A DNA stretch of 64,000 bases from a virus, in the IMG/VR virus record IMGVR_UViG_3300029953_000001, one strand, 5' to 3'. Under the pieces are notes generated by a model that saw only the letters and a program-made list of their open reading frames with translations, searched no databases and was not told the origin of the DNA. Both the position numbers and the translations under genes were made by a program. The stretch's first letter is position 1, and every line of letters starts with the position of its first letter. Below, piece by piece: positions 18,576 to 49,717 of the stretch.

Positions 18576-19970
18576 TTATCGGGTTGTAAGCGTCACAGCT
18601 ACCTTAGGCTTTTTCTTCACAAACGCGACGGCAAGCTGCTTCAACCGGTTACGGGCCTTGTTGAATTCCTTCTGGCTCATGCCAATCTCGTGGCCTTCGT
18701 GAAGCCCCTCCCTGACATCCTTAGTGGTTGCAAGCTTCTTGCAGGTCTGGCAGAACTCCTTCACTGTATCCGTCGCACTACCCGCCACATAGACAGCTTC
18801 AAGAACAGGAAACACATCCGGGTCAGTGTCATGCACATACTCGATGAACTTATGCGCAAAGAAACTGGTCTCAGCCTTCTTTTCCTCTCGGTGGGTAGCT
18901 TCAGTTAGGTAGCTCGACTTAGAGTAAGCGTACTCGTCAGTTACTTCACCGCGACTATCCGGGTTAGTCTCAGCTACCAAGGATACGTTACCAACCAGAC
19001 AGACAGGGTTTTTTTGCCGCTTACCAAAGATGGTATTGAACTTGTTGGTGAGACAATAGTTGACATAACTCCGCCAGCGGCGTTCGCTGGCTCCGTACTG
19101 AGCGAAGGGGTCGAAGGTCTGGATGACATCCTCCTTACCTGCCAAACGGTGCTTGGAGGTCTGAGGCAGATACTTCATGTGAATAATGAGTTCCTGCACC
19201 CAGTCTTCAATGTCTTCCTCAATACCCTTACCGCCCAGCCGCCGTCGCACCCAGTTTTCAAGATAACGGGGGTAGCGTTCAAAAAACTCGCTGAAGTTCT
19301 TCGGCACAACAAACCCGTCGTCACCAATGAATTGACCGCCTTCACTGATGTAGAAGTTGTCCCCCCTGTAGCCTTCACGCGCTGCCAGAGTAGCTTCCTT
19401 GGGAGTCTCGACTTCTACTACGACTGGATTGTTGGGCTGGCTTTGACTATCAGCCTCCGTAGCGGTCGAAGACTCGCAGGGAGTAGACTGGGTGATACCC
19501 TTCTTAGCTGACCATCGGGTCTTTTGTGCTTTCGAAATGCGCTCCTTGACCTCAGGACTCAGGTTACGAGTACGAGTCAACCAACGAGCCTTCTGAGAGT
19601 CGGAAATGCGCTTCCGAGCCTCAGGGCTAAGCTGACGCTTCTGTACCTTAGGCTCCGACGAAACTAAAGTAGAAGGTACAGCCCCGATACGAGCCAGTAC
19701 CTGACTGGTGATGGGCTCCAAAAGCTGAGCAGTGATAGTCTCAGCGAGGTAATTGAGGACGACCTTAAAAGCCGTATCAACTGATTCATTAGGAACAATA
19801 TTTGGTGTCTCTTTGGAGCCGACTGTCGAAGTTTCGACTTTGATTTCCGGCAACAGGTCAGGTACGCTATTCGAAACTGTAGACTGATGCATCCTGCCTC
19901 CACGGCAAAACAAAACCCACGGGTTGGTGGGACTAAGGGTTTCAACACTTCCACTACAATACCGCCGCAA
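18576..19970 (-). CDS. Hypothetical protein with two NUMOD3-like DNA-binding repeats and C-terminal alpha-helical domain (probable start at internal Met, ~19895)
   Basis: Repeats LSPEARKRISDSQKARW and LSPEVKERISKAQKTRW match NUMOD3 consensus (s.E.r.KIS.a.kg); no nuclease motif seen. Confidence 0.5.
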   Translation of the reverse strand: MRRYCSGSVETLSPTNPWVLFCRGGRMHQSTVSNSVPDLLPEIKVETSTVGSKETPNIVPNESVDTAFKVVLNYLAETITAQLLEPITSQVLARIGAVPSTLVSSEPKVQKRQLSPEARKRISDSQKARWLTRTRNLSPEVKERISKAQKTRWSAKKGITQSTPCESSTATEADSQSQPNNPVVVEVETPKEATLAAREGYRGDNFYISEGGQFIGDDGFVVPKNFSEFFERYPRYLENWVRRRLGGKGIEEDIEDWVQELIIHMKYLPQTSKHRLAGKEDVIQTFDPFAQYGASERRWRSYVNYCLTNKFNTIFGKRQKNPVCLVGNVSLVAETNPDSRGEVTDEYAYSKSSYLTEATHREEKKAETSFFAHKFIEYVHDTDPDVFPVLEAVYVAGSATDTVKEFCQTCKKLATTKDVREGLHEGHEIGMSQKEFNKARNRLKQLAVAFVKKKPKVAVTLTTR

Positions 19971-20902: not shown

Positions 20903-23900
20903 CTAACGGCCTCTCCTATGGAAGGGGTTTCGGACTACATCACCCATAGAACTTTCCGTAATTCTTTGAATTTTTCGCATCCGCTCAAGAATCTGGAGGT
21001 CCCGCAAGATAACACCGTCCATATTAATGATAGCCCCTGAAGGGAGGTTCATTTGCTGTGCGATGAGTAGTGACTGACCGGAGGGGTCAATTTTCAAACC
21101 ACCTTCTTCCATGAGCCACTTTTGAGCCTTCCATGCACAGAGTTGAGCCGCGTCCACCATGTCATCATGGCTACCCTTTTCAAGCGGAGCCGCGACCCGA
21201 ATCTGGTACTTGTTAACGTACTCAGCTTCGACCAACCGCAGTTCCTTGAGGAACTTTGGAACGTAGGGGAACCGGCAGCGGGTATCGCGGACATAACCTT
21301 GGAGCACGAAAGCCATCTGTGAGTTCAATGTCGCCGTGAGGTTCACGAGTTCAATGTTGTGAATCTTGTTGAGTTCGAGCAACTGCACAAGCTGCTGTCC
21401 CCCGTGTTGGTCGGTTGCACCACGCCAGCAGGGCATCAGTACATTCAGAGCCTTGAGCCACGCTAGGATGTCTTCCAGCGGGAGAGCCTTGAATCCGACG
21501 TACTTCTCCAATCCCTGTATGTGTCCCACACCGGGGCCTTCAAACTTCTCCCCGACCATCATACGGTCGATGTAGTCATAGACCAAGTGAATCGGCTGTG
21601 AACCCCCGACATACTCCAAGTGGCCGATTGCGACCGCCGTAGCGTCATGACTCATACCCAAGTCGATTGCCCAGAAATACTGGCGACCGATGTCCTTGGG
21701 ATGGAAGTGAGACAGGTTGAACCGAGCAGAAGTTTCGTCGGGCTCTTCAAAACCACCATTCGTCTTGACATACTTCACATCAGTGCAAGCCTGAATTTGT
21801 GCTTCAGTCAAGTACGATTCAGAAGACTCAAGGAAGTTACCCCCGTATTCAGCCTTGAACGTGAGTGGGTTCTTGGTATACTCCGAACGCAGGGTTTCGG
21901 ACAGGATGGTAGGGTTCATCTCCGCTGTGGATAGCCGGATGGTGAATACCTTAGTCTCCTTCGCACCACGCTCCATGGCGTCCTTGTGAATGTCGAACAT
22001 CTTACCGACCTTCGTCCAAGGGCTGGAGATGGAAAGCACAAGAGAGTCTTGGAAGGATTTGTATTCCTCCGGCTTCATAGTGGCCGCAGCGACGAGTTGG
22101 TCTACCCAGCCGCCCTTGAGGTCTTCCGCGTGCTTGAAGTTGACTGTAGACGGCGTGGCGGCTCCGTAGACCTCATCTGAGGATGAGCCCTTGGAGGAAC
22201 GGAAGTGAGCGAACTCGTCCAGAGCGAGGAAGATATTCGAAGGGCCACGGACGGCATTGGTTGTGCTGGCGTAGCTTTTGACGTTAATGGACGGAGTAAC
22301 GTCACGCTTGTGACGGTCAGCTTCAGACACGAAGCCCATCCATGATGAACTGGAAGCCTTCAGATACGGGTTGAAGAAAGGAGCCCGGTTGATGTCTTCG
22401 CGGAGCTTGTCGTAGAGACGGTTGGCACCCTCTTCGTCCTGAGCCATGAATGTGAAGTCGATGTGCGACCCGGCGATGAGGCCGAAGTATTCCTGAGGCG
22501 ACCGGATGTTTAGCAGTTTGTAGAGCTTGTAGGCACCGATGGCGGACACTACCTGAGAGTTGTGGGTGACATTGAAGTTCTTGCCGAACAAATACAGACT
22601 GGTAGGGTTGGTAGTGGTAATACACCGCATGGGCATCCTACCGACAGGTTGAATGTCAGTGATGAACCTCCATTTTTGAGTGGAGTTTACTGTACTAGGG
22701 AGTTCTGCCAATTTCCTTGGAAGACGGAAGACCGGTAGGGTGCCTGTCCATGTTACCCTGTATTTCTCGCCGCAATCCCGGTCATTTAGGATAGCTCTGC
22801 CCTCCCCCCAATAGGGTTTCAGTCCGAGTGAAGCAGCGAGGTGGTATACCCCCTCCGCCAAACTACGATTTGTGTTTGTGAAGTCACATCGGCTGCGGCT
22901 GCAACTCCCATCTGTGTCCATCAGCCCCTGCAACAGAGATAACCTTTGCGGCTCGGACGCCCATAGATATTGATGAGGGATGTGCTTGTTCTTCAAGACT
23001 CCAAGTTGACGCAAGGGAGAGAACAACCCCAGTACGTGCCACCGAGTGGGTGCTTTCTCGTTTTGGTAGAAAGTCATACCCGCCGATTCAAAGTAGGGTA
23101 GTATCTTGTCTGCATCTTCTGGGGCAGCGGTGATAATCCCGCAATCGCTATTTCCATCCCCCAGCCATACCCCCAAACAGTAAGGGTCGAGAAGCAGGTC
23201 AATGTCAGGACAGGTTACTGCCTTTGCAAGTGGGATGCAGTGGTTTGTTTCCTGTTTCTTACCCACCCTTAGAGTAGCTAGGAGTTCTTCGGTAGTGCGC
23301 GTAGTGCCCCCAATGGCGTGCTTAGAACACTTGGCGGCTTTCCGGTCAACCTTGGTTAGGGTGTTCCACAGGTGACCGCCATGGGCGAATACGTGTGTAC
23401 CATCATCAAAGGAGACCTTGAACGCCTCTAACTCTTCAACTGGATGAGCGTACTTTACTTTGTAAACCTGTCCATCCTCACCGAATACGGCGTCTCCTTC
23501 TTCTAAATCGCCGTTTCGCTTACATCCATCTGGTGTTGGGATAGGCTCATCAACGTGAAGCATCTTCCCGCCACGCCGACCCGCAAAAATCGCCGCCTCT
23601 GTGAAGCCCCTCTCCGGCATGTCCCGCCAGTCATTGACGTTGCAACGTCCTTCTTCATGAAGGATATGCAGGCACTCTTCCTCGCTGCACTCGCGAACAG
23701 GGTTCTCGCGGAACACATCCCACATCTGTACCTTAATAGGAGCGAAGTCAATTGGAACTGCGAAGATACACTTCACAATCAACCGCTGAAGCGGGTACAG
23801 TTTAATGTTCAGACCTTGTGGTGACTCGATAAATTCAATGGCATTGAGAAGTTTACTCGCATCTTCTATGGCTCCATCTATGACTTTTCCAAAAACACTA

Positions 23901-23938
23901 CTGTCTGTCGGTTTTGTAAAACGTTGCCCACGGGCCAT
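20903..23938 (-). CDS. terL: Terminase large subunit (ATPase + nuclease) interrupted by an intein
   Basis: Extein Walker A reconstituted as AGRRGGK|S across intein; Walker B-like LALDEFAHF; terminase-size C-extein (~550 aa); intein with Hint blocks and two LAGLIDADG motifs. Confidence 0.85.
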   Translation of the reverse strand: MARGQRFTKPTDSSVFGKVIDGAIEDASKLLNAIEFIESPQGLNIKLYPLQRLIVKCIFAVPIDFAPIKVQMWDVFRENPVRECSEEECLHILHEEGRCNVNDWRDMPERGFTEAAIFAGRRGGKMLHVDEPIPTPDGCKRNGDLEEGDAVFGEDGQVYKVKYAHPVEELEAFKVSFDDGTHVFAHGGHLWNTLTKVDRKAAKCSKHAIGGTTRTTEELLATLRVGKKQETNHCIPLAKAVTCPDIDLLLDPYCLGVWLGDGNSDCGIITAAPEDADKILPYFESAGMTFYQNEKAPTRWHVLGLFSPLRQLGVLKNKHIPHQYLWASEPQRLSLLQGLMDTDGSCSRSRCDFTNTNRSLAEGVYHLAASLGLKPYWGEGRAILNDRDCGEKYRVTWTGTLPVFRLPRKLAELPSTVNSTQKWRFITDIQPVGRMPMRCITTTNPTSLYLFGKNFNVTHNSQVVSAIGAYKLYKLLNIRSPQEYFGLIAGSHIDFTFMAQDEEGANRLYDKLREDINRAPFFNPYLKASSSSWMGFVSEADRHKRDVTPSINVKSYASTTNAVRGPSNIFLALDEFAHFRSSKGSSSDEVYGAATPSTVNFKHAEDLKGGWVDQLVAAATMKPEEYKSFQDSLVLSISSPWTKVGKMFDIHKDAMERGAKETKVFTIRLSTAEMNPTILSETLRSEYTKNPLTFKAEYGGNFLESSESYLTEAQIQACTDVKYVKTNGGFEEPDETSARFNLSHFHPKDIGRQYFWAIDLGMSHDATAVAIGHLEYVGGSQPIHLVYDYIDRMMVGEKFEGPGVGHIQGLEKYVGFKALPLEDILAWLKALNVLMPCWRGATDQHGGQQLVQLLELNKIHNIELVNLTATLNSQMAFVLQGYVRDTRCRFPYVPKFLKELRLVEAEYVNKYQIRVAAPLEKGSHDDMVDAAQLCAWKAQKWLMEEGGLKIDPSGQSLLIAQQMNLPSGAIINMDGVILRDLQILERMRKIQRITESSMGDVVRNPFHRRGR
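22559..23563 (-). mobile_element. Intein (~335 aa) with double LAGLIDADG homing-endonuclease domain inserted in TerL P-loop
   Basis: Begins immediately after GK of Walker A; LGVWLGDGNS and LLQGLMDTDGS (LAGLIDADG x2); C-terminal block G ...FNVTHN followed by +1 Ser; block F has Cys (MRCITT) at canonical Asp position; Trp in block B region. Confidence 0.75.
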
Positions 23939-28149: not shown

Positions 28150-31100
28150 TATTTCACCCCTACAACAATTCCGTCCTTAACCATAACTTCCGCGTACCAG
28201 CGATGGGGCTCTGGGTACCAAGGGCCTTCGACTGTTGCCCGACCATTCATTGGGGGTTCACCCATGCCGGGGTTATAGAGAGAAATCTGCTTGCCAGACA
28301 GAACAGCTTCCCTGAAGTCCTTCTTACTCTTGAAATTCTTGCTGGCGTAAGAGCCCGTCTTTGCACCAGCGGTAATCTGTGTCGGAAGATTGTCGGCGAG
28401 GTCGGCCAGTTCGCCAAAGGTGTCGCTCATCTCTACTGCCTCATCGTGCTCGTCACCAGCGGCGGCGAAGTGCTCTGGGTTCACGGTCTTGGTTGCTTCA
28501 GGGCTGTCGGCTAGTTCAGCCTTGGCACCAGCATCCAGTTCAGACTTCGCATCAGCAATGTCACCAGAAATAGCATCCGCCCTCTTACGAGCGATGGCAG
28601 CAAGTACCTTCACCTTTGCGGCTTCCTCAACCGACTTCACCGGCTGCTTGATGTCAGCATCGACCGATGCAGGGGACTCCACTTCGGCCTTAGCCTCAGA
28701 GATGTCCCCACTTATATCAGCAGCGGACTTGGACGCCTGTGCCTCTTCCTGCTTCTTCAACTGCTCCTGCTGCTTCACACGCTGCATCTCACGGTACTTG
28801 TCGTCTCCCGTGGAGTCCGTTTTAGCAACCTTATCGTCACGCAGACCGTCGTCGCAACCACCAACCTTAGCCGCTTCTTCAACGGTCTTGACCGGCTGCT
28901 TGATGTCGGCGTCAACTGTGGTCGGAGATACAACCTCAGCCTTGGCTTCGGAGATGTCTGCGCTCACGTCGTTGCCCGTCTTCGAGGGAGGGCAGTCACA
29001 CTGAGTGCTAATCTTGTTGCAACCACTGCACGAGTAGTAGTTGTCTTCCTCGCCTTCTCCGCCAATCAGCTTACGTCCGCACTTGCAAGGGAATAGGGCA
29101 GTCGCCTTCTTCGCCGCAGCCACCTTCTTCGAACTGATGACCAATGACGGCATGACCATACCAGCTTTGAGACCGCGACGGGTCATGAACGCCTTGATAG
29201 GTGCCATCGCCTTCTTGACATCTTCAACGGTGACGGGCACCTGACCCGGCATACTGTTGCGGCTGTTGTCCTTAGCCTTCTGTACCAGACCCATCAGCGA
29301 TGACGCAGCGTGAGCCGGAAGCGGCCACGAGTGCCAACCATCGGAGTTGCTGTTGACTTCATCAGCGAACGCGGCGAGGAAGTTGCACACCGGCCCGATG
29401 ATTGGGTCTTGAGCGAACCGACGCTGGGCGTCCTGAATCTCGTAGTCGTTCATCCAAGTAGCCATCTTAGCCGAGGCTGACTTGTCAGGGCGGTGTTCGT
29501 CGCAGTACATGCGTCCGTCAATCTTGACCGTCTCAGGCTTCATGCAGACCTGACCCGGACCTTTTGCCCGACCCTGAGTGTCTGTCTCGCCGACGTAAGT
29601 ACGGCAACCGTGTTCACCGGGATACTGGTCAAACGCAGCTTCCTTCGGAGTTTCCTTCTTCTCTTCCTTCGGCTCTTCAGCCTTGGGCTCCGCTGGCTTC
29701 TCGGCCTTGTCCTTGTTGAACATCTTGGACTTGAACCCGTCCTTCTTGGGAGCATCGGTCTTAGGTTCAGATTCGGAAACGCCGCTGTCGCCAGTCTCAT
29801 CGCCGCCCTTGGGAGCGGAGCCTTCACCCGGAAGTTCAACCTGCGGAGCCTCACCGAAGTCTTCGGTGATAGCATCCCAGATGCTATCTTCAGTCAGATT
29901 CACGTTGGCCTTCTTGCGACGGATGGCGTACTTGTTCAGGTGGTTCTCGTTCTTCACACGTGCGGCCTTGGCGTTGGTCGAGAGTGCGTCGGTGTCATCG
30001 GTCAAGTCCAAGTCGATGGCGTCAACCACCGCAGCCACGATGTCGAAGCTGGTCTTCTTCGCTGACTTTGCTGACTCCAATGGTCGTTCCCGCAACACGT
30101 GAGCCGGGAGACCCTCAAGCTTCTCCATCATGATGCCGCCCTTGGCTTCCCAGTAGCGGTTGGCATCCTCATAAGAAGTGCAGACTCGTCCATTCACGGT
30201 GTACTGTGGATATGACGCAGCAACCTTACGCTCTTCCTCAGCACGACGCGGCACACCGGTCTCGTCAATTGCGATACCGATAGGTGCGTCACCCTTGGTC
30301 GAGATGGTGTCAACTGCTACAGCGATAGCCTTGTTCGCATTGTCGTGAGCGGAGGTTCCCGGCCCGACGTTGGTGAACGGGGTCTCGAAAGGAGCCTCTG
30401 AGCCCATCTTCATGGCGTCTTCGTTCATCTCCTGCGTGTAGGAACCCTTCTCGCCGTAGTCAGGGCGATGACGCAGTTCTGTTCCGTCATCAAGAGCCGA
30501 AACCTTTGACAGACTATCTGCGGCCCTCTGGAGCACAGTCTTCTTTGTATTCTCATCAAAGCCCATAAATTCTTTGATGGACATACCCGCTTCTGCCAAT
30601 AACGAAGACATAGGGTACCGATTAGGGTTTGCCGCAGCAGTCTTCGGCTCATCCTCTTCCTTGGTGTTTTGGATGGAGTCCTTGATGTCGGCAATTTCTG
30701 GAATCTCAGCGTTGCCGTGGTTGGAACCGTCAGGCCCCTTGTAGTCGGCCACATCTTCCATCGCATCAACCGGAGGCATGGTGACTTCATTGAGAACCGC
30801 GTCGAGTTCATCGAACACGCTCAACTCCTGAGGCTCAAGCACTTCCTGAGTGATGGCGTCCGCCGTCTTGGCGGTGAGGAAAATCTTGGTCTTCGTCCAA
30901 CCACCCTGCTTCGAGAACTCAGGGTACGCAGTGAGCGGATTCTGAGTGAGGAAGGGGTAGGTCAGCTTCGGGGTGATGTCGGTAACGTCCAGCTTGTTGG
31001 TGTCCACCGTGGTCATCAATGCGTCGAACGCGGAGGAGACAGCCGGGTTGAAGTACGCCGAGAACACAAGGTGGCGGAGCAGGTTAGAGAGCTTATCGTC

Positions 31101-39121: not shown

Positions 39122-39886
39122 ATGGCAATTTCAGTTGTTCAGAAAGCAAAGAATTTTTCAGCGTATCAGGTAAAGCCGCTGACGGTGACCCTCCCAGCAG
39201 GGACAACCGCAGGTTCGTACCTCGCTGTTGTTGTTGAAGCATCGAAGAGCGGGGCTCCCTTCAACCTTGGCTCCTTTGGTGCCCACATCCCCAACCCTAT
39301 CGTCACCGACGACAAGAGCAACGTCTACACGACTGTTGACAGCATCGTAGGCGTGTCGCAGGAAGCGAACGGTATCAACAACCCTGATGCGTCGGGCTTC
39401 TTCCCTTCGGCCTACATCTATGTCGTTGCCGCCGCGACTGGTACTCAGAACATCTCCATTGGTGCCTTCTACCCGGACGAATACATCTCGCCTATTCAGC
39501 CGGGTGGCAACCTCGCTTCGCCGCCTAACGTCAACGGTCGCCCGGTGTTCGACGGTGGTCTGCACGCTCAGGTGTTCGAGGTAGCTGGTCTTGCGACCGG
39601 TGTTGACGTTCACGGGCATGGTACCACGTATGGCTCAACTCCGCTTGGTGCTGGGTTATTCACTACTTCTGCCGTCGCTGGTATCATCATCGAAGCTGGT
39701 ATCCTGATTGACTCGGCGACCATCTCCCCAGACACCAACGTCAACTCCGTATTGCAGTATTCGCAGCGGCTCAACGCTTCAACCTTCATGGTTCAGACCC
39801 GCATCACGGGTGGAGCCGTGACAAATGCTGGCTTCGGCAACGCGCTGAAGTATGGCGGAGCGGTCGTGGGCGTGGCTCTGAAATAG
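39122..39886 (+). CDS. Ser/Thr/Gly/Ala-rich structural-like hypothetical protein (254 aa)
   Basis: Composition and strong terminator immediately downstream; RBS GGAGA before ATG. Confidence 0.55.
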   Translation: MAISVVQKAKNFSAYQVKPLTVTLPAGTTAGSYLAVVVEASKSGAPFNLGSFGAHIPNPIVTDDKSNVYTTVDSIVGVSQEANGINNPDASGFFPSAYIYVVAAATGTQNISIGAFYPDEYISPIQPGGNLASPPNVNGRPVFDGGLHAQVFEVAGLATGVDVHGHGTTYGSTPLGAGLFTTSAVAGIIIEAGILIDSATISPDTNVNSVLQYSQRLNASTFMVQTRITGGAVTNAGFGNALKYGGAVVGVALK

Positions 39887-40032: not shown

Positions 40033-40794
40033 TTGTCAATAACAAAGGAAAAAATGGCGGGAGTGGCGGGGGTTTACATATGGTTGAACTTGGTGAACGG
40101 TAAAGTATACGTCGGGTCAGCCAAATTTATACCCAGAAGAAAGTCCGCTCACCTTAGAGCCCTGAAGTTGGGGAAGCATCATAGCCCTCATTTTCAAGCG
40201 GCGTGGGATAAGTATGGTGAAGCTGCGTTCCAATTTGGAATCGTGGAAGAAGTCCTTGATGAGCTTTGGCTCCGGGCGAGAGAGACGGTTTGGATTAAAC
40301 AGCTACGGTCAGCCGAGTCTGTCTATGGGTACAACATCGCTCGTGACGGCTGGACTGCGGCTCAGCTTGAGCCCACAGAACGTCGCCGGGAAGCATGGAA
40401 GAAGAATGGTGAGCGTAAGAGGGGTGTTCAGGACCCACCTGAGGTTAGAGCTAGAAAGAAAGCGGCAAGTCAGGGTAGAACGCCCCCAAGTCACCTGAAC
40501 CATAAACACAGCGAAGAAACCAGAGCTAAAATGCGTGCTGCATGGGCGCGAAAGAAAGCTCGTGGGTATACGTCACCTGTAACTTTTACAACAGCCGGGA
40601 GACCCTCTTGGAATAAAGGAATACCCCCTTCCAAGGAATCCCGTCAGAAACTATCCATTTCACTAAGACTAAGCTGGACTCCTGAACGCCGCGCTGCACA
40701 AGCAGAACGGGCACGCAAACAAGGCTTAGCAAATTCAAAAAACCAACACAAAATCGGAGCTACGGAGCCGCGTTGTGTTGTGGAGGTGTCGTGA
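40033..40794 (+). CDS. GIY-YIG homing endonuclease with NUMOD3-like repeats (likely start MAGVAGVYIW ~40054)
   Basis: GVYIWLNLVNGKVYVGSA ... YGYN; HSEETRAKMRAAW and SKESRQKLSISL repeats. Confidence 0.8.
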   Translation: MSITKEKMAGVAGVYIWLNLVNGKVYVGSAKFIPRRKSAHLRALKLGKHHSPHFQAAWDKYGEAAFQFGIVEEVLDELWLRARETVWIKQLRSAESVYGYNIARDGWTAAQLEPTERRREAWKKNGERKRGVQDPPEVRARKKAASQGRTPPSHLNHKHSEETRAKMRAAWARKKARGYTSPVTFTTAGRPSWNKGIPPSKESRQKLSISLRLSWTPERRAAQAERARKQGLANSKNQHKIGATEPRCVVEVS

Positions 40795-40797
40795 TGA

Positions 40798-41559
40798 GTG
40801 AAAATACTCCTTACTTTCGATAGCGTGACCAGTGCCAGAGCTATGCTTCTGAGCGAGGATGAGCAACTAGAAGGCGCGACCACCATTAGCTTGGAGACGC
40901 AAGCCGACCTAGCTGAGGAAGACATCCTCAGTTTCATTAGCGAGAACTTTGAACGATTCCTGCGGACGCTCCGCTTCCTGAAGAAAGAAGACCAAGAACT
41001 TCTCCTCAGCTACTATCTGCTGTCGAAGACTCAGTCCACCCTCGCCCTCATCCACAAGTCAACGCAGACCGTTTGCAGCTTCCGTATCCGCATGGCGGTG
41101 AAAACGCTGGGCACATTCATGATGGTGGGGGAGCCCACCGAAGAACTACTACATGAGGTCTTGGAAAAGGCTGGGCTGGAGAACTCACTGGAGCCGCTAG
41201 GCATCGAATCCCCGTCGCCGAAACCCCGACTCTCCACGGTTGTGATGGAGTATGTCAGGACTCGCAACTTCCAACAGGTAGCAAATCACTTCGGGCTACA
41301 CCGACCAGATGTACGTCGGGCTATGAGCAGGGCATCCAAGGCTCTCATGGACTCCAAGGACGGCAAGGAAGCTGCTGTGGCAGCGTGGCTACACTCACTC
41401 ATCGACAAGGTATCACCGGTTGGAACCGGGTTCTCTAAACGCAAGGCACAGAAGATGGGGCACATATACATGAAATCTAGTGCAGTTCTCGGTCAGTTTA
41501 GGGTGAATATCGAGGACCCTGACTTTTCACAATGGTTCGTTTCGAGAGCCAGCAGGTAG
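40798..41559 (+). CDS. Sigma-70 region-4-like HTH protein (candidate phage sigma factor / transcription regulator)
   Basis: LKKEDQELLLSYYLLSKTQSTLALIHKSTQTVCSFRIRMAVKTL resembles sigma r4.2 (L..rEr.vl.l.y.l..t...iA...g.s...V......A..kL); second HTH-like TRNFQQVANHFGLHRPDVRRAMSRASKAL. Confidence 0.45.
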   Translation: MKILLTFDSVTSARAMLLSEDEQLEGATTISLETQADLAEEDILSFISENFERFLRTLRFLKKEDQELLLSYYLLSKTQSTLALIHKSTQTVCSFRIRMAVKTLGTFMMVGEPTEELLHEVLEKAGLENSLEPLGIESPSPKPRLSTVVMEYVRTRNFQQVANHFGLHRPDVRRAMSRASKALMDSKDGKEAAVAAWLHSLIDKVSPVGTGFSKRKAQKMGHIYMKSSAVLGQFRVNIEDPDFSQWFVSRASR

Positions 41560-41944: not shown

Positions 41945-42355
41945 CTAAAGACGCGGGAAATCGAATATGTTGTTGTTCGTGCGCGACCATCCACAATCGC
42001 AGATAGAGTCGTGGAAAGCGATGAGTTTTTCGTCGCGCTGCTTCAACTTCAACAGGTCGTTGCGCTGCTTCCACAGGTCGTTGCGCTGCTTCCACAGGTC
42101 GTTGCGCTGCTTCAACAGGTCGTCGCGCTGCTTCAACAGGTCGTCGCTCTGCTTCCACAGGTCGGCCAACCAAGTTGGCATATCGGCAGGAAGAATTTCA
42201 CGAAACAGTTTCTTCCGCAGTTCGATCTGCCAAGGCTCTTCTACTCTCGCCTTTGTTGTGTTGATGGTTTCGAGCCGTGAAGCATAGGACTCACCTAAAA
42301 GCTCGATAGGGAGACTCGCTTCGTGATGCGCGTGCAATGCTACGCAGGTTGCCAT
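41945..42355 (-). CDS. Heptad-repeat (coiled-coil) protein; start taken at MATCVALH with AGGAGG RBS
   Basis: DDLLKQR/NDLWKQR x6 encoded by 21-bp tandem repeats; RBS AGGAGG 9 nt upstream of ATG at 42355. Confidence 0.5.
   Translation of the reverse strand: MATCVALHAHHEASLPIELLGESYASRLETINTTKARVEEPWQIELRKKLFREILPADMPTWLADLWKQSDDLLKQRDDLLKQRNDLWKQRNDLWKQRNDLLKLKQRDEKLIAFHDSICDCGWSRTNNNIFDFPRL
42031..42165. repeat. 21-bp tandem repeat x~6 (CAGGTCGTTGCGCTGCTTCCA and variants)
   Basis: Seen in sequence 42053..42157 as five contiguous near-identical 21-mers plus degenerate flanks. Confidence 0.85.
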
Positions 42356-42966: not shown

Positions 42967-43320
42967 TCAATCCCACCTCGCGGTTTCGGTATCTAGCAGG
43001 TGGATGTGCATATCCTTGAGATCGCCAGCCAAAAGCAGTAAGCCGTTCTTGACCGCTTCGATGCGCTCGCGCTCCTTCTTGGTTCTCGCTGTGGCCAGTG
43101 CGGAGTTACGTAATTCGGCTTGAAACTCAATGTAGCGGATCACCTCCGCTTTTATGGCTGTTCCCTTGATGAAAATCATTGCGTCTCCATTCGGTTGGGT
43201 GCGTTCTTGATTGTTGGTTGACTCGGTGCTGCGGTGTCGCCTGTCCAGCCCCATGCACGAGCCATAGCTACAAGCTTGGGGAAGGAGGGTGCTGTTACTC
43301 GCTTGGTTGTCGGGTTCCAC
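42967..43320 (-). CDS. Hypothetical protein (likely shorter, from MIFIKG)
   Basis: ORF; 5' part overlaps next gene. Confidence 0.3.
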   Translation of the reverse strand: MEPDNQASNSTLLPQACSYGSCMGLDRRHRSTESTNNQERTQPNGDAMIFIKGTAIKAEVIRYIEFQAELRNSALATARTKKERERIEAVKNGLLLLAGDLKDMHIHLLDTETARWD

Positions 43321-43523
43321 TTGTGCAGCTTCGCCAGTGGGAGAGCCCTATAGTCCACGAAGACTGTCTCGTTCAGAACTGCATTGTATCCGACCCAGCC
43401 TGTCAGCAGCCAGAAGCACTGGTTGGCACATACTCCGAATCCGATGGTACGCTTCGAGCCGCAGAGCACGCAATGTGATACTTCGATGTTCCTGCGACCG
43501 ACCGGGCGTACTGTAATCCTCAT
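43176..43523 (-). CDS. Hypothetical protein (115 aa)
   Basis: ORF only. Confidence 0.45.
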   Translation of the reverse strand: MRITVRPVGRRNIEVSHCVLCGSKRTIGFGVCANQCFWLLTGWVGYNAVLNETVFVDYRALPLAKLHKWNPTTKRVTAPSFPKLVAMARAWGWTGDTAAPSQPTIKNAPNRMETQ

Positions 43524-43645
43524 AAAAGCATCTCCTACTTCTCAGTATACCAAGCACATCGCTCTTTTGGTTAGTTTTTTTTGAAAACTATTTTCTCGGT
43601 CGTACCGTTAACCTTTCTGACTATTGACCTCTTTAGTAGAGGTTC

Positions 43646-44296
43646 ATGATGACAATGCGCTATACAGTGTACCGAACACAGAACATCGCTAATGGCAGGT
43701 ACTACTTTGGGGTTCACAAAACGAGAGCCCCCTATGATGGATACTTAGGGTCAGGTACGATATTGATGGGTGCAGTGAAGAAGTATGGCAAACAGGCGTT
43801 CATCAAGAACGTGTGCTTCGTCTTTGACAACGCAGAGGAAGCTTTTGCAAAAGAGTTCGAACTGATTGAGACGTACAGGGAAGACCCGCTCTGCTACAAC
43901 CTGAGACAGGGAGGAAGTGGAGGTTTCGACTACATTAACACCCATGAGTTGAGACAAGGCACCCCTTATCTCGGGAAAACTCACTCTAAGGAAAGCAAGA
44001 AACTCATGAGCGATACTAAGAAAGGAAAACCCAGTCCATTTATCAATAGGTATCATACGGAGGGGGCTAGAGCAAAGAACCGTAAAGCGCATACGATTAA
44101 TCTACAGGGGCAACATTTTGGCGATGTCACCGCTATTTCCATTGTTAGCTACTCATCTACTAGAGCTAATTGGAGGGTTAAATGTGGGGTATGCGGGGAA
44201 GAAGGGATTGTGCGGAGTAGCCGGGTGCTAAATGGAGACTCCAGCTTTATGAAGCAACACAATACTTGCGAAGACCCTCCACTTCAGATGCGATAG
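43646..44296 (+). CDS. GIY-YIG homing endonuclease with NUMOD3-like motif
   Basis: YTVYRTQNIANGRYYFGVH ... CYNLRQGG; HSKESKKLMSDTKKG. Confidence 0.8.
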   Translation: MMTMRYTVYRTQNIANGRYYFGVHKTRAPYDGYLGSGTILMGAVKKYGKQAFIKNVCFVFDNAEEAFAKEFELIETYREDPLCYNLRQGGSGGFDYINTHELRQGTPYLGKTHSKESKKLMSDTKKGKPSPFINRYHTEGARAKNRKAHTINLQGQHFGDVTAISIVSYSSTRANWRVKCGVCGEEGIVRSSRVLNGDSSFMKQHNTCEDPPLQMR

Positions 44297-45190: not shown

Positions 45191-45451
45191 TTAGCTCACG
45201 TAGGCGGTGATTTCATAGTCGCCCGATACTTCCATTTTGTACCACGACAGGCAGAGCCAAGTGTTGACACCGACCTGCTCGTTTACCCGGCCTTCACGAC
45301 CGCAGTAGATTCCCTCTTCCATGCCCTTGAGACCAGCCTGATTCAGGATGGCGTCGATGTCGGCGATGGGGATGAAGCGGTGGTAGGTCGCCATCGCGGC
45401 GAGAAGCTTGTTCGCAATCTTACGGGCTCGGGTTTCGTTCACGTTTGCCAT
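45191..45451 (-). CDS. Hypothetical protein (86 aa)
   Basis: ATG 6 nt downstream of conserved TATACT element. Confidence 0.5.
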   Translation of the reverse strand: MANVNETRARKIANKLLAAMATYHRFIPIADIDAILNQAGLKGMEEGIYCGREGRVNEQVGVNTWLCLSWYKMEVSGDYEITAYVS

Positions 45452-45510
45452 GTCTGTAGTATACGGGACTAACCACGGTTATGAACAACTATTTTGGAAA
45501 TTTTTACTGT
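45452..45510 (-). promoter_or_regulatory. Conserved promoter motif copy A (AT-rich UP – TTGTTC – 19 nt – TATACT – 6 nt – ATG)
   Basis: Minus-sense GTAAAAATTTCCAAAATAGTTGTTCATAACCGTGGTTAGTCCCGTATACTACAGACATG. Confidence 0.55.
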
Positions 45511-45766
45511 CCGCCGTTCTTGGCGACCATGATGGGTGGGACTCGCAAAGGACATCAATCTCTTCGAGGCCGTTGCTGCCGTCCAGATATGCCCAAACCT
45601 GCTCAGCGTCATCGTCGGACAGGCCGGTGAGGAACTTGCGGAGGACATCCGGCATGGTGGAGGTCTCAGCGGCTGCGTCGGCGAGGTCGGCATCCTTGGC
45701 GTCTTTCGCCCACTGCGGGGCTGGTGTCCATCCAAACGGGGCGGGGACTGCGACGGGCTGTTTCAT
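45479..45766 (-). CDS. Hypothetical protein (start MKQPVAV)
   Basis: ORF 45479..45835 trimmed to first ATG. Confidence 0.4.
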   Translation of the reverse strand: MKQPVAVPAPFGWTPAPQWAKDAKDADLADAAAETSTMPDVLRKFLTGLSDDDAEQVWAYLDGSNGLEEIDVLCESHPSWSPRTADSKNFQNSCS

Positions 45767-45910
45767 GGTGGCTCCTAGCGGGTGTGGCGGGGCTTCAGGC
45801 GGCTGAGGCGGGTTGGGTGGAGGGCTCGGTAGCAAACATCCTCTACAGAGCCCCTACGGGCGACCAGAACGGCGGTAATCGTGAGATAAAGACCAAGTAT
45901 GTGCATGGGA

Positions 45911-46387
45911 TTAGGCGTGCATAATCTGGCTGTTGAGGCTGGCCTTGCGGTCAGCGTTCATGGAAGGGTAGTAGGTGGCCCGGATGCCCTCGATGGGGTT
46001 GAAGGTCAGCTTGTAATCCGGGTGGAGACGGCTAGTGTCGGTGACCGCAGGGCAGGTCGTGATACTCAGAACTTCCGCACGGGCAGCAGCCTCAACCTCA
46101 GGCGTCACGTCGTATTTGAAGGACTGGAGCGTGTCCGACTTGACCGGGCTGGCATTGAGCAACGCGGCCCAATCCTCAGGCTTGATGTGAGCCGACCCGT
46201 TGTAGCTGTACAGGGCCTTGACCCAAATGTAGCCAGTCATGGCGGTAATGGTGAGAAGCTGAGATTTCCGGCAACCCGGCAGGATGCCCCATACCCGGTG
46301 GCTGGCGTAGTAACCAGTCTTGGAGTGGCTGTTGGCCGAGACTTCAATCTTGGAGGCGGTAATTTGGAGTGCGGTAGACTTCTTCAT
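45911..46387 (-). CDS. Hypothetical protein (158 aa, start MKKSTAL)
   Basis: ATG 6 nt downstream of conserved TATACT element. Confidence 0.5.
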   Translation of the reverse strand: MKKSTALQITASKIEVSANSHSKTGYYASHRVWGILPGCRKSQLLTITAMTGYIWVKALYSYNGSAHIKPEDWAALLNASPVKSDTLQSFKYDVTPEVEAAARAEVLSITTCPAVTDTSRLHPDYKLTFNPIEGIRATYYPSMNADRKASLNSQIMHA

Positions 46388-46447
46388 ACCCACAGTATAC
46401 CGGGGCGACAGGTCTTTCGAACAACTATTTTAGGAATTTTTTACCTG
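46388..46447 (-). promoter_or_regulatory. Conserved promoter motif copy B
   Basis: Minus-sense GGTAAAAAATTCCTAAAATAGTTGTTCGAAAGACCTGTCGCCCCGGTATACTGTGGGTATG. Confidence 0.55.
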
Positions 46448-46656
46448 TCCATCGCTTCCATGGCACGGTCTTGGGCGGCTTCCCGGCGACGGGCGAGGTA
46501 ACGGGGGTCGTACTCCCAGTACCGGCCATCGAGGATGCCGAACTCAATACCGGAGTCGATGTAGTTGGCGGTCAGGATGTCCCGGCCATACCCCATGAGG
46601 AACATAGGGCGGCAGTCACCATGGACGGCTAGGGAGCGTGAGGTCTTGAGGGACAT
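46441..46656 (-). CDS. Hypothetical protein (71 aa)
   Basis: ORF only. Confidence 0.35.
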   Translation of the reverse strand: MSLKTSRSLAVHGDCRPMFLMGYGRDILTANYIDSGIEFGILDGRYWEYDPRYLARRREAAQDRAMEAMDR

Positions 46657-46939
46657 GGTTAGCCCACCAGCAGGAAGGCGATGCTGCCAAGGATGGCACC
46701 CAAGGCTATGCCGTCCGCGATGACGCGAGACATCGAGGGTGTTTCTTTGTAGAAGAGTTTCATGGTGGTCTCCTATTTCGGGAATTGAAGTACGGTGAGG
46801 TACAGGGCGTCGAAGAACACGAAGATGTGTGCGGCGAGTAGCACCATGCTACCAGCGAAAGACTTCAGGCGGAACCGGCTGACCATCAGGTGGTAGTCGG
46901 CGTAGAAGAATGCGGCCCACAGGGCGATGGTGAACCGGA

Positions 46940-47806
46940 TTAGCATTTGGTGTTCTCCAGAACGTCGTGAGCCATGGCTTCCACGAGGGCTTCCTCGTAC
47001 AGCTTGCGTGCCTTGGCGATGTGCTCTTCGGTCTGAGGTACACCGCCAACGTTGACCGAGAGGAACAGCCAGAGAACGTCCGACCGCTTGACCCGGCTGG
47101 CTTGCAGCTTGGCGTACTGCACACCCAAGTCCGTGAACGAGTGCTTGTCGCCCCGGCTGAACTGGAACCACGTCTTGCCCTTGAACGTGAAGCGGCCCTC
47201 CATGAACTCGATGATGGCGTTCATACGCTGCTTGCCGTCGATGACTTCCAGACGGTAGTCCTCGTCACGTTCGAGGAACACAAACTTGCCGATGTCCGTC
47301 CTGTCCATGATGGAGTGGATGAGACGCTGCTTGTCTTCGAGCGACCACACGTAGTCACGCTGGTAGTCCGGCGATGTGATGAAGCCCCGGTGATACGCCA
47401 TGTGAACCAGTGAGTCCAGCGAGGTAGAGAGGTAGGAGGTCTGAAGGGACTCCCGGCCAAAGTTGGTGTCTTCTTCGGTGACGAGAGGCTCGACATCGTG
47501 CCACCAGCGATAGAGCGGGAGACGGCGGTTGTTGTCGAACGGCTTGCCATACTCCTGACCCACGTCTGAGCGGCTGATGTGAATCACCTTGCCGTCCATG
47601 AGAACCTCTTCGACCGTGCAGTCCACGAGGTTGCCGATGCGAACCTTCTCACCAACCTTGAAGTCGTAGTTGGGGGGGTTGACCTGAGCAAGTTGGTCGC
47701 GGATGTCACGCTGGAATGAACCCCACTCGTGGACGCGGAAATCCTCGTAGGTCTCAGGTGCCTTGGGTGCCTTGGGTGCCTTCGGCTTACGTGTCTTTGT
47801 AGTCAT
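46940..47806 (-). CDS. DUF262 / ParB-like nuclease domain protein with N-terminal KAPKAPKAP repeat
   Basis: YQRDYVWS...QRLIHSI...IGKFVF...EVIDGKQRMNAI matches DUF262 (QR..VW, DGQQR) as in GmrSD N-domain. Confidence 0.65.
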   Translation of the reverse strand: MTTKTRKPKAPKAPKAPETYEDFRVHEWGSFQRDIRDQLAQVNPPNYDFKVGEKVRIGNLVDCTVEEVLMDGKVIHISRSDVGQEYGKPFDNNRRLPLYRWWHDVEPLVTEEDTNFGRESLQTSYLSTSLDSLVHMAYHRGFITSPDYQRDYVWSLEDKQRLIHSIMDRTDIGKFVFLERDEDYRLEVIDGKQRMNAIIEFMEGRFTFKGKTWFQFSRGDKHSFTDLGVQYAKLQASRVKRSDVLWLFLSVNVGGVPQTEEHIAKARKLYEEALVEAMAHDVLENTKC

Positions 47807-47809
47807 GAC

Positions 47810-48406
47810 CTAACTCCGGTAGTAATGGTTCTGGCTGATGTAGGCGAAGGCTTCCTTCATGTTCTTGTACGTGCGCGAACTACCGAAGCGGGTGGAGATG
47901 ACCCAATACTCCCCCGTGAAGTAGAACTGCTCCACTTCGGTACACTCATCACACGTAAAGACGCCGAAGTGCTTGTGCCCAAAGTCATTCTTGGTGACAT
48001 AGAGTAGCAGGGTCTTTATCGCCTGACGCTGCCGCTCGTTGTGCTTGAGACCCTCAGGGCTACGTTGCAAGTCAATCGTAATGACCCGTTGTTGGGTATC
48101 CTTCCAGACGTTGCCACAGAATACCGCCGTCAGACCTAAGTCCGTGAGGGTCTTGACGAAAGCTGTGTACTTAGCGTCCGAGGTAGGGTACGCTGCCAGC
48201 AGGAACTTCCAGTCGAGCTTCTTCTTGGCAAGGGTGAGGCGATGGGCATGTTCGATGAGGTCGTTCATGTTTGCCTGAGTCACAGCAATCTGTGCCTCAA
48301 GGGGCTTGGTCATACGCTTGATTTCCTTGTCGAGAGCCTCGACCTGCTTCTGCTCAGCCATCGCCAGAGCCATCAGGGACTTCGCGGTATGTGTCTTGAT
48401 TGCCAT
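47810..48406 (-). CDS. Hypothetical protein (198 aa, start MAIKTHT)
   Basis: ATG 6 nt downstream of conserved TATACT element. Confidence 0.5.
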   Translation of the reverse strand: MAIKTHTAKSLMALAMAEQKQVEALDKEIKRMTKPLEAQIAVTQANMNDLIEHAHRLTLAKKKLDWKFLLAAYPTSDAKYTAFVKTLTDLGLTAVFCGNVWKDTQQRVITIDLQRSPEGLKHNERQRQAIKTLLLYVTKNDFGHKHFGVFTCDECTEVEQFYFTGEYWVISTRFGSSRTYKNMKEAFAYISQNHYYRS

Positions 48407-48472
48407 GGGTACAGTATACCTGACGTGACACGAAGTTGAACAAGAATTTCGGTAATTTTTTACGATGTCGGG
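48407..48472 (-). promoter_or_regulatory. Conserved promoter motif copy C
   Basis: Minus-sense CGTAAAAAATTACCGAAATTCTTGTTCAACTTCGTGTCACGTCAGGTATACTGTACCCATG. Confidence 0.55.
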
Positions 48473-48477
48473 AAAGC

Positions 48478-48540
48478 GACACAATGTTACCGGTTAAGAG
48501 CTTTTTAGCGGATAAGCGGCACAACGTTACCGGTTAGAGG
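48478..48540. promoter_or_regulatory. Two 21–25-bp direct repeats (GCGACACAATGTTACCGGTTAAGAG / GCGGCACAACGTTACCGGTTAGAGG), candidate operator/iteron in divergent promoter region
   Basis: Seen in sequence, 40-bp periodicity, each contains palindromic cores AACGTT and ACCGGT. Confidence 0.45.
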
Positions 48541-48655
48541 GTTCTATCCCTATATGCTTTTGGGGGATTGTGAGCGCACACTAAAGTGAAATAGTTGAAC
48601 TTTTTGGTAACAATGTGGGGTTCTCGGCTCCTATAGGGTTAAGGAGGCAATTAAT

Positions 48656-48820
48656 ATGGAGAAGTTTTTGGTTGGATTTGAAGACACCGCAGCACTGGCC
48701 GTTCCCCCTGAGATTTACGAGGTCCGGAAGCAGCGGATGAAGAGGCTCATTGAACTGGGAGCCCCTATGGTAGTCATTCGGAACGAGGCGGTCATTCTCT
48801 TGACTTGCTTCAAAACGTAA
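48656..48820 (+). CDS. Small protein (54 aa, MEKFLVGFEDTAALAVPPEIYEVRKQRMKRLIELGAPMVVIRNEAVILLTCFKT) with very strong RBS; not in ORF track
   Basis: TTAAGGAGGCAATTAATATG; followed by terminator hairpin. Confidence 0.45.
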   Translation: MEKFLVGFEDTAALAVPPEIYEVRKQRMKRLIELGAPMVVIRNEAVILLTCFKT

Positions 48821-48822
48821 GG

Positions 48823-48855
48823 AGGGGAGCCTTTACTGGCTCCCCTTCTCTAACT
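48823..48855. terminator. Bidirectional terminator hairpin (GGGGAGCC-TTTACT-GGCTCCCC + T-rich)
   Basis: 8-bp GC stem seen between convergent genes 48656..48820(+) and 48905..49717(-). Confidence 0.6.
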
Positions 48856-48904: not shown

Positions 48905-49717
48905 TTATAGCTCGATGCCGTACCGCTTGGCAATACGGTTGCGGGTACGCTCACGAACGGATGCGGCCTTGTTCTCTTCAGAGCTTCCCTGTGCTTCGGG
49001 AATCTCCAGCTTGGCTGGTGCCTCAGGCTTGGCGTTGTTGTCGCGGTCAGTGATGAACGGGACGGAGCCATCGGCCTTTTTTTCCTTCTTAGTATGAATC
49101 GGGTCTTTCTCTTTCTTATGGCACTCTTCGCAGAAATCTGTGCTGTGACCTGCCGCAAACGGGGTCATTTTGTAAGCGTGAGGTTTAGTTTTAATCTTGG
49201 CTTCCTTGTCGAAAGCTTCCTCAGCCGGTTTGGCTTCAGAAGACTCAAGTTCCTTTTCGCCTTCCTCGAACTTCTCCTCGTCAACGGTAATCTTCTCTTC
49301 AGGATGTTCCTTCTCGCCTTCGACAACTTCCTTCTCACCCTCTTCGGCGAAAGCATCTTCGACCGGGGTCAGGTCGAGGTCAATACCCATGTTCTCGGCG
49401 AGAGCTTCAATCGCACCGGCAACATCATCGAGTGAGTGATAAACCTCGCTGATAGCGTCGGCCACAACTTCAGGGGCCTCTTCAGCGATACGCTTGAACG
49501 CGGTCGCGTACTTCTTGGTGGTAGCAAGACGGACTTGGATGGAGGCAGTCTTCGGAGCCTCGATGAGGTCGAGATTGTCACGCAGGTTCGACAAGGCGTC
49601 GGCCATAGTGCCAAGAGCGTCGGCTACTTCCGCGAGAGCCACATCAGCTTCTTTCGGCTCCTCGCCAGCTACCTGACGGAGACGAGCCCACTTCGATTGT
49701 TCATTCTTACTAGCCAT
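48905..49717 (-). CDS. Acidic Glu/Lys/Ala-rich protein (270 aa); scaffold-like composition, function unknown
   Basis: Low-complexity helical composition; no motif. Confidence 0.5.
   Translation of the reverse strand: MASKNEQSKWARLRQVAGEEPKEADVALAEVADALGTMADALSNLRDNLDLIEAPKTASIQVRLATTKKYATAFKRIAEEAPEVVADAISEVYHSLDDVAGAIEALAENMGIDLDLTPVEDAFAEEGEKEVVEGEKEHPEEKITVDEEKFEEGEKELESSEAKPAEEAFDKEAKIKTKPHAYKMTPFAAGHSTDFCEECHKKEKDPIHTKKEKKADGSVPFITDRDNNAKPEAPAKLEIPEAQGSSEENKAASVRERTRNRIAKRYGIEL

Follow-up and report, generated by a model that had tools for sequence, protein, structure and literature searches.

In a 64,000-nucleotide stretch of viral DNA (IMG/VR record IMGVR_UViG_3300029953_000001, hereafter the window), three minus-strand genes starting at 48406, 46387 and 45451 are each preceded by the same succession of an A/T-rich block, the hexamer TTGTTC, a 19-nucleotide spacer, TATACT and six further nucleotides, which raises the question of whether a phage promoter sets the transcription start directly on the start codon here and, if so, what reads it. 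Our analysis supports the arrangement TTGTTC-N19-TATACT-N6-ATG as a conserved phage promoter class with its predicted +1 on the A of ATG. Transcription in huge soil phages, notably phages of Acidobacteriota, is essentially uncharted. In protein searches the closest cultured relative of the phage is the jumbo myovirus Tunturiibacter phage Tunturi_5 (PP885688.1; 308,711 bp; 34-56% amino acid identity), which infects an Acidobacteriota host, and the words promoter, sigma and leaderless appear nowhere in the paper describing it. The exact product of the open reading frame (ORF) at 40798..41559 of the window is recorded on a 431,749-bp contig, and the window therefore derives from a huge phage with a genome of about this length, a phage present in several metagenomes. 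The window represents 64 kb of this ~430-kb genome, and the copy counts given for it refer to those 64 kb.

Three predicted promoter copies abut the start codon and a fourth has a leader

An exact search of the window for TTGTTC-N19-TATACT returned three occurrences, all on the minus strand (48443..48413, 46424..46394 and 45488..45458, given as hexamer spans), each followed by exactly six nucleotides and then ATG at 48406, 46387 and 45451, respectively, so that the arrangement which the sequence-only reading had described was recovered at all three starts. Two exact hexamers at fixed spacing have ~0.008 calculated chance occurrences per 128,000 positions. A 20-nucleotide A/T block with the consensus GTAAAAAATTnCCnAAAATAG lies 5' of each TTGTTC, and the combined pattern of block and hexamer (AAAWWTNCCNAAAWTNNTTGTTC, up to three mismatches) gave three matches against 0.07 expected, a number reached in none of 100 shuffles; a direct-repeat finder likewise listed block plus TTGTTC as a family. 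Copy 1 (48404..48463) consists of the A/T block GTAAAAAATTACCGAAATTC at 48463..48444, TTGTTC at 48443..48438, the 19-nucleotide spacer, TATACT at 48418..48413, six nucleotides and the ATG, while the corresponding elements are found at 46444..46425, 46424..46419 and 46399..46394 in copy 2 (46385..46444), and at 45508..45489, 45488..45483 and 45463..45458 in copy 3 (45449..45508). Copy 1 stands at the head of the array, in an intergenic region between divergent genes, the A-tract of copy 2 opens with the TAA stop codon of the upstream ORF, and the upstream 95-amino-acid ORF of copy 3 terminates within the spacer. Since the copies differ in frame and context, the motif is no repeated coding element, an outcome that would have spoken against a promoter.

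The three ATGs are also the starts picked by a self-trained coding-potential model, and on six further contigs of the same phage independent metagenome gene callers gave the same starts (198, 158 and 86 amino acids). No Shine-Dalgarno (SD) sequence (GGAG, GAGG or AGGA) occurs in the 25 nucleotides 5' of any of them, as had been claimed, and none could fit between TATACT and the ATG because the gap is only six bases; most other genes of the window are preceded by an SD of the GGAG, GAGG or AGGAG type. Within the window, TAnnnT-N6-start was found only at the three reported sites. A TAGATT-N6-ATG candidate at 44092 was rejected, as it lies antisense within a homing-endonuclease gene. We also dismissed the site at 17987 that had been taken for a degenerate fourth copy (TTGTGC-N20-TATTAT-N5-ATG): its letters are as described, but no A/T block precedes it, and it deviates in each hexamer and in each spacing.

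TATACT matches the sigma70-type -10 element TATAAT at five of six positions. TTGTTC matches TTGACA at three of six and stands 19 nucleotides from the -10, outside the 17 ± 1 nucleotides of a canonical -35 element; a sigma70 consensus scan of the window did not call the sites in the form in which they had first been framed. The A/T block lies at about -57..-38, where 11 of 15 specified positions match the Escherichia coli UP-element consensus in register, with AAAA at -44..-41. Bacterial leaderless genes have been defined by a TANNNT that begins ~12 bp ahead of the start codon (PMC3160421), and experiments in Deinococcus demonstrated promoter activity for a -10 motif located 6-7 bp ahead of ORFs (PMC12340547). 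In the three window copies the first T of TATACT is exactly 12 nucleotides 5' of the start codon; this geometry equals the published leaderless signature and thus supports a leaderless promoter.

A real fourth copy, absent from the sequence-only reading, came to light through the window's orthologue of a family that begins with MARITVR (43176..43523, minus strand), the gene that it drives. This copy (43521..43594, minus strand) comprises an A-tract, CTAACC at 43574..43569, 19 nucleotides, TATACT at 43549..43544, which makes the -10 hexamer common to all four window copies, an AGGAG SD at 43536..43532 and the ATG at 43523. Its predicted +1 falls near 43537/43536, and the 14-nucleotide leader would begin with the SD. 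The proposal that the transcripts are leaderless is supported for the three starts, where the geometry puts the predicted +1 on the ATG, and this architecture recurs in relatives with freely varying spacers; the fourth copy has a leader.

A related predicted promoter occurs 29 times in Tunturi_5

The genome of Tunturi_5 was assembled and TAnnnT hexamers were counted at each distance 5' of its gene starts, which revealed 13 cases at exactly N6 compared with ~1-5 at most other spacings. Behind this peak stands a unit composed of an A/T-rich stretch, cAAAG-TCATCTTTGG, ~14 nucleotides and YG-TAGGTT-GA, and the core TCA[TG]CT-N18-TAGGTT is present 29 times, scattered across 300 kb. The base seven nucleotides past TAGGTT is a purine in every one of the 29. 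An ATG begins at this predicted +1 in nine of them, is seen once only over the next seven offsets, and reappears at offsets of 15 and above, where it is preceded by SDs of the GAGG type whose first base is the predicted +1. Such a bimodal distribution, with the ATG either at +1 or at least 15 nucleotides on and equipped with an SD, is what a fixed transcription start predicts, because it leaves room for no leader or for an SD-sized leader. One of the leaderless copies heads the gp318-gp317 operon, and gp317 is the orthologue of a GmrSD_N gene in the window. The Tunturi_5 promoter, written as TCATCTTTGG-N14-TAGGTTGA (29 sites, e.g. 18164, 53556, 54754 and 260308), precedes early- or middle-type genes such as those for DNA ligase, 3'-phosphoadenosine 5'-phosphosulfate reductase and a RecT-like protein.

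The exact window motif was found neither in Tunturi_5 nor in IMG/VR. In 596 Gb of bacterial genomes, the Tunturi_5 core gave 12 scattered hits against ~17 expected by chance, with no enrichment in Acidobacteriota, and the sole Acidobacteriota hit falls within coding sequence. Canonical sigma70 promoters matching at 11 or more of 12 positions were not found in the 308 kb of Tunturi_5, and the window holds seven at 10 or more of 12. The scarcity of canonical sigma70 promoters, together with the chance-level bacterial hits, favours a phage-specific class. Reading the Tunturi_5 box as a hairpin or dyad was rejected, as the left arm is weakly conserved and shows no covariation. Tunturi_5 furthermore carries three cases of TACACT-N6-ATG (104456 on the plus, 110292 on the minus and 112838 on the plus strand) with no common upstream box, a possible second leaderless class.

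The box at the -35 position is specific to each genome

To follow the promoter into closer relatives, ±10 kb around homologues of ORF 40798..41559 were fetched, which yielded three metagenomic loci with conserved synteny (L146, L147 and L148). A pattern scan of metagenomes contributed, among the matches listed, mostly random single matches, the informative ones being L058 and L108 (from the same phage), L126 and L092. The operon heads of further IMG/VR relatives (L016-L029) were not reliably readable from 8.8-kb pieces. Locus L146 contains four copies of the form AAAAATTT..AATT-GTGGCTAA-...-TATACT-N6-ATG, L148 three copies with CTAGCCAAA, and L147 one copy with ATAGCCAAAT. Two of the L148 copies are leaderless, and in the third an SD starts at the predicted +1 (TATACT-agatgt-GTGGAGGATTCACCC-ATG). 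L126, 78% identical to the window at the DNA level, has retained the box in both copy 2 and copy 3; spacer and six-nucleotide gap vary in sequence at constant length. In L092 (VFSW01531358.1) the TTGTTC version occurs in another gene context; on this 1-kb contig of another relative the leaderless promoter lies 3' of a gene for a LuxR/GerE-type helix-turn-helix (HTH) protein and a terminator hairpin. Two IMG/VR contigs of 105 and 455 kb (L018 and L028) carry a CTAACC-AAAA box, N19 and TAGAAT-N6-ATG.

The A/T block, the -10 and the N6-ATG junction are thus retained in L146, L148, L147, L126, L092 and L018/L028, with spacers and gaps that vary in sequence and are constant in length. The -10 reads TATACT in L146, L147, L148, L126 and L092, TAGAAT in L018 and TAGGTT in Tunturi_5. 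Of the 16 copies in the TATACT group, 14 lack a leader, and position -1 is a pyrimidine in each of these; the predicted +1 is a purine in 15 of the 16, as it is in 29 of 29 Tunturi_5 copies, and, judged by sequence, all 23 leaderless copies have the pyrimidine at -1.

The genes downstream are orthologues with 57-89% amino acid identity (BLASTP), yet each stands behind the box of its own genome. Both the 158- and the 86-amino-acid families are preceded by TTGTTC in the window, GTGGCT in L146 and CTAGCC in L148, neither being found in L147, and the MARITVR family by CTAACC in the window, GTGGCT in L146, CTAGCC in L148 and ATAGCC in L147. All box variants have T at position 2, and an A-rich run comes next except in Tunturi_5, where TTTGG follows. 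GTGGCT, CTAGCC and TCATCT are no nearer to TTGACA than TTGTTC is. The earlier suggestion that a phage factor is involved seems plausible to us, since each genome has its own sequence at the -35 position. More tentatively, we suggest that the box (TTGTTC, GTGGCT, CTARCC, TCATCT) may change in concert with a fast-evolving, phage-encoded specificity determinant, while neither the -10 nor the A/T block nor the leaderless start would alter. If true, nature would have produced a set of mutually orthogonal pairs of promoter and reader that work on a single host polymerase and are tied to leaderless translation.

Proposed mechanism and rival explanations

We consider it likely that these elements form a phage promoter common to the clade and recognized by a multisubunit RNA polymerase of the bacterial type. 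Numbered from the A of ATG as +1, it would consist of an UP-element-like A/T block at about -57..-38, an asymmetric box of 6-10 nucleotides at -37..-28 (TTGTTC in three window copies, CTAACC in the fourth), TATACT as the -10 at -12..-7, a six-base gap whose last base is a pyrimidine, and a purine at +1. For three of the window copies, +1 would coincide with the A of the start codon, leaving no 5' untranslated region and committing the transcript to a leaderless translation route, while the fourth would add a 14-nucleotide leader beginning with an SD. The promoters would drive small early- or middle-type genes, including one with a GmrSD_N nuclease domain, and the units are located in a variable insertion flanked by conserved genes of structural type. 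That the A/T block occupies the UP register speaks for a core enzyme of bacterial type that includes alpha subunits, and Tunturi_5 has no annotated phage RNA polymerase; the host core enzyme may contact the A/T block through the C-terminal domains of its alpha subunits. A standard -35 element is unlikely, because the box stands at too great a distance from the -10 and bears too little resemblance to TTGACA, and its asymmetry fits a monomeric sigma-4-like reader. We therefore prefer a reading in which a phage-encoded specificity factor would recognize the genome-specific box and a sigma-2-type domain the conserved -10. The coupling of this anatomy to start codons, its conservation and the genome specificity of the box are evident at the level of sequence.

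Several points weigh against this view. The window contains two box types, TTGTTC three times and CTAACC once, which weakens the idea of one factor and one box per genome. Of its four copies in 64 kb, three fall within 3 kb, and local duplication adds to their similarity. Each box still matches TTGACA at three of six positions, and the host primary sigma factor plus an UP element might therefore suffice. Neither of the two conserved candidate readers considered below covaries with the box, and gp211, the only other annotated sigma factor of Tunturi_5, is not conserved across the clade. In addition, the transcription start at the predicted +1 is deduced from sequence alone, and the phage of the window is tentatively assigned to an Acidobacteriota host solely through its kinship with Tunturi_5.

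The strongest rival takes these sites for ordinary promoters of the host primary sigma factor, with an UP-like block, a good -10 and a box that is merely a weak -35 at 18-19 nucleotides, the uniformity of the box within a genome arising from duplication or gene conversion of copies rather than from a phage factor. TATACT retains the critical A2 and T6 among its five matches to TATAAT, the A/T block is in UP-element register, and the T at position 2 of every box is among its three matches to TTGACA. Moreover, a phage without a virion RNA polymerase needs early promoters that the host can read, no phage RNA polymerase is annotated in Tunturi_5, and no reader protein covaries with the box. However, Tunturi_5 keeps TCATCTTTGG in 29 copies over 300 kb between fully diverged spacers, which points to selection on the box; -35 recognition is highly conserved in bacteria, so that genome-specific boxes would be unexpected; and the Tunturi_5 core is not above chance in Acidobacteriota genomes. 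On balance, we regard this explanation as somewhat unlikely.

It is less probable that the ~60-nucleotide units are mainly recombination cassettes that shuffle small genes and have promoter activity as a secondary property, a view that is compatible with the promoter reading preferred here. The copies flank small genes without known relatives (ORFans) in an insertion relative to the gp345-gp347 synteny of Tunturi_5, the gene content of the block varies among relatives while the promoter units persist, and comparable promoter-early stem-loop (PeSL) cassettes are documented in T4-type phages (PMC2839356, PMC4122927). Against this, no stem-loop or terminator stands beside copies 2 and 3, exact N6-ATG coupling and a purine at +1 would be superfluous for recombination, and the divergence of spacers around constant boxes indicates functional selection rather than homogenisation of repeats.

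Two candidate readers were separated. The sequence-only reading had proposed that the box is read by the 'sigma-like' product of ORF 40798..41559 (plus strand), which has two HTHs resembling sigma region 4 and antiterminator Q and corresponds to gp346 as its Tunturi_5 orthologue. Some 300 core huge-phage proteins, 60-85% identical and encoded on huge-phage contigs, make up its family. When 22 family members were scanned singly, all matched Phage_antitermQ weakly (residues ~55-109) and 13 matched Sigma70_r4_2; the ORF 40798..41559 product alone had no Pfam, PHROG or PDB hit above threshold, and its structure model is of moderate confidence (predicted local distance difference test score, pLDDT, 69). 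The term sigma-like is thus half justified: an HTH of the region 4 type is present, but a sigma70-family region 2 (sigma-2) domain was not detected. Both recognition helices of the family are identical across phages with TTGTTC, GTGGCT, CTAGCC and ATAGCC boxes, and the protein is for this reason a poor candidate for reading the box. Taken together with the missing sigma-2 domain, the lack of PDB or Pfam hits and the model quality, this makes the proposal very unlikely. Its target could instead be one of the constant components, for example RNA polymerase itself, the -10 or the A/T block. Tunturi_5 gp346 (301753..302487) is annotated as 'exonuclease' in spite of its membership in this HTH family, and the label is probably wrong. 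Directly 5' of the gene, in the window as well as in L146, L147 and L148, lies a 254-amino-acid ORF to which no function is assigned (39122..39886, plus strand); its own upstream sequence (TAAATACCCAAAA.TT...GTAGAA...SD), common at least to the window and L148, represents a promoter type unlike the one studied here.

The actual sigma-family gene of the window is probably 18576..19970 on the minus strand, which starts at 19892 (ATG) or 19970 (TTG) and encodes a putative divergent sigma70-family factor orthologous to Tunturi_5 gp3; a tblastn search with gp3, annotated as 'RNA polymerase sigma factor', retrieved it with 34% identity (E=5e-37). Sequence searches of Pfam and PDB with the gp3-like family gave no hit, and the C-terminal helix of its members, KEFNxARNRLKQLA, hardly varies among the four closer phages and does not covary with the box. 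We consider its product a candidate holoenzyme subunit for the phage promoters. The ECF-type (extracytoplasmic function) sigma factor gp211 of Tunturi_5 was rejected as a clade-wide reader, as it has two close homologues only.

Finally, an operator function of the box, at which a phage repressor of early transcription would act over a promoter lacking a -35, could draw on its genome specificity, its -35 position and the operator-like repeats and small divergent ORF upstream of copy 1, but it is the least probable of all, since the boxes are asymmetric without dyad symmetry and the left arm of the seeming palindrome CCAAAG-TCAT-CTTTGG in Tunturi_5 is poorly conserved and does not covary with the right arm.

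Genes of the array and its surroundings

The promoter block (~41.6-48.5 kb) lies within an insertion between the homologues of Tunturi_5 gp345 and gp347, which also contains glycosyltransferase and homing-endonuclease genes; the block itself comprises small genes and the GmrSD_N gene, and its G+C content is slightly higher. The four array genes named here are on the minus strand. Copy 1 precedes a 198-amino-acid protein of no known family (47810..48406), for which no homologue was found in the phage database, followed in the same transcription unit by the GmrSD_N/DUF262 gene (46940..47806; ParB-like nuclease domain), the orthologue of gp317. The 158-amino-acid gene behind copy 2 (45911..46387) has leaderless orthologues of the same architecture in L126, L146 and L148. 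Behind copy 3 lies the 86-amino-acid gene 45191..45451 (MANVNET...), whose orthologue is leaderless in L146 and has an SD leader from the predicted +1 in L148. PHROG and Pfam searches of nearby proteins remained mostly empty, and a near-identity search of the phage collection with the region returned no match.

Immediately 5' of copy 1, at 48469..48536, two 28-nucleotide direct repeats (CCGGTAAC(G/A)TTGTG.CGCTT..CCG) were noted, with an inverted partial copy (GGTAACAATGTG) at 48606..48617. They adjoin a divergent 54-amino-acid ORF (48656..48820, plus strand) with a strong SD (AAGGAGG), and the array head of L146 has the same arrangement, in which a short, divergently oriented ORF and a site reading CACTTTGTTAC occur. 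Repeats and ORF could constitute an operator/regulator pair controlling the array head. Further upstream, at the 3' end of gene 48905..49717, a TTGCCA-18-TATAAT promoter matching sigma70 at 11 of 12 positions is followed ~50 nucleotides on by a strong hairpin terminator (48846..48823) with no Rfam match; the segment 48933..48823 (minus strand) could give rise to a short non-coding transcript or serve as a two-way terminator. Two homing-endonuclease genes (40033..40794 and 43646..44296, both plus strand) run opposite to their neighbours, one being of the GIY-YIG type with NUMOD3 and the other giving a weak NUMOD3 match. The second lies directly upstream of promoter copy 4. The position of the first is taken in L148 by another gene, whose cysteines and histidines, judged by eye, form an HNH-like pattern. 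ORF 41945..42355 (minus strand) contains six tandem 21-nucleotide repeats (CTTC(A/C)ACAGGTCGT(T/C)GCGCTG; 42026..42185) that encode a seven-residue protein repeat.

Elsewhere in the window, the minus-strand gene 20903..23938 encodes a homologue of the large terminase (Tunturi_5 gp1) with an inserted LAGLIDADG domain, probably an intein. The product of 2588..3685 (minus strand), homologous to part of Tunturi_5 gp272, combines an InPase-like (inorganic pyrophosphatase) domain (E=2e-34) with a weak region resembling the catalytic domain of poly(ADP-ribose) polymerase. A 95-nucleotide internal repeat (28612..28706 and 28864..28958; 76% identity, 252 nucleotides apart) lies in a 1138-amino-acid protein homologous to the DarB-like protein. 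Searches of the whole window detected no tRNA gene and no Rfam RNA family.

Comparison with known systems

At the middle promoters of phage T4, a MotA box at -30 is combined with a sigma70 -10, and the host sigma factor is appropriated by MotA/AsiA. As in the promoters described here, a host-like -10 is joined to an asymmetric phage-specific element that replaces the -35 before early or middle genes. Our box differs from the MotA box in sequence and in position, varies among related phages and precedes many transcripts predicted to be leaderless; no search for MotA or AsiA homologues was made. Other phages encode sigma factors with promoters of their own, such as SPO1 gp28 and gp33/34 and T4 gp55. 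The many near-identical promoter copies per genome and the divergent sigma-family gene 18576..19970 are reminiscent of these systems, whereas the putative sigma-4 helix of its product does not covary with the box and its pairing with these promoters is a candidate one.

The TA-led genes of Actinobacteria and Deinococcus-Thermus share with the window genes a TANNNT 12 nucleotides before the start, the lack of an SD and an A that would serve as start of both transcription and translation (PMC3160421, PMC12340547). In contrast to the Deinococcus motif, the phage promoter has a long conserved upstream part made up of A/T block and box, and unlike TA-led genes, those of the phage mostly use SDs, and leadered and leaderless forms of one promoter coexist. 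In Thermus phage P23-45, gp39 displaces sigma region 4 and thereby switches transcription to extended -10 promoters (PMC3950348, PMC4124052). There, as proposed here, host RNA polymerase is re-targeted to phage promoters without a canonical -35; the window promoters, however, lack the TGn extension and have a conserved box. The PeSL cassettes of T4-type phages join an early promoter to a stem-loop (PMC2839356, PMC4122927) and likewise form repeated promoter units before single small ORFan genes in variable regions, but they belong to a different clade and host. The promoters of the window have no accompanying stem-loop, no hairpin being found by copies 2 and 3 and the nearest to copy 1 lying ~380 nucleotides upstream, and they are coupled to the start codon at a fixed distance.

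The present analysis provides a concrete promoter model with predicted starts, 29 of them in the laboratory-growable Tunturi_5, and corrects gene-start expectations, as these genes have no SD. Genome-specific boxes at the -35 position before orthologous genes offer a directly testable case of promoter/reader co-evolution, and if the reader of the box is found, the box series would be a ready-made orthogonal promoter set. Leaderless promoters abutting ORFs, phage-specific promoter classes, sigma appropriation, the gp39 switch (PMC3950348) and T4-type promoter cassettes (PMC2839356) are already known. New, as far as the predicted starts hold, are their combination in a scarcely studied clade of huge phages, a long composite promoter with strict coupling of +1 to the AUG, the occurrence of leadered and leaderless forms of the same promoter, and genome-specific boxes before orthologous genes.

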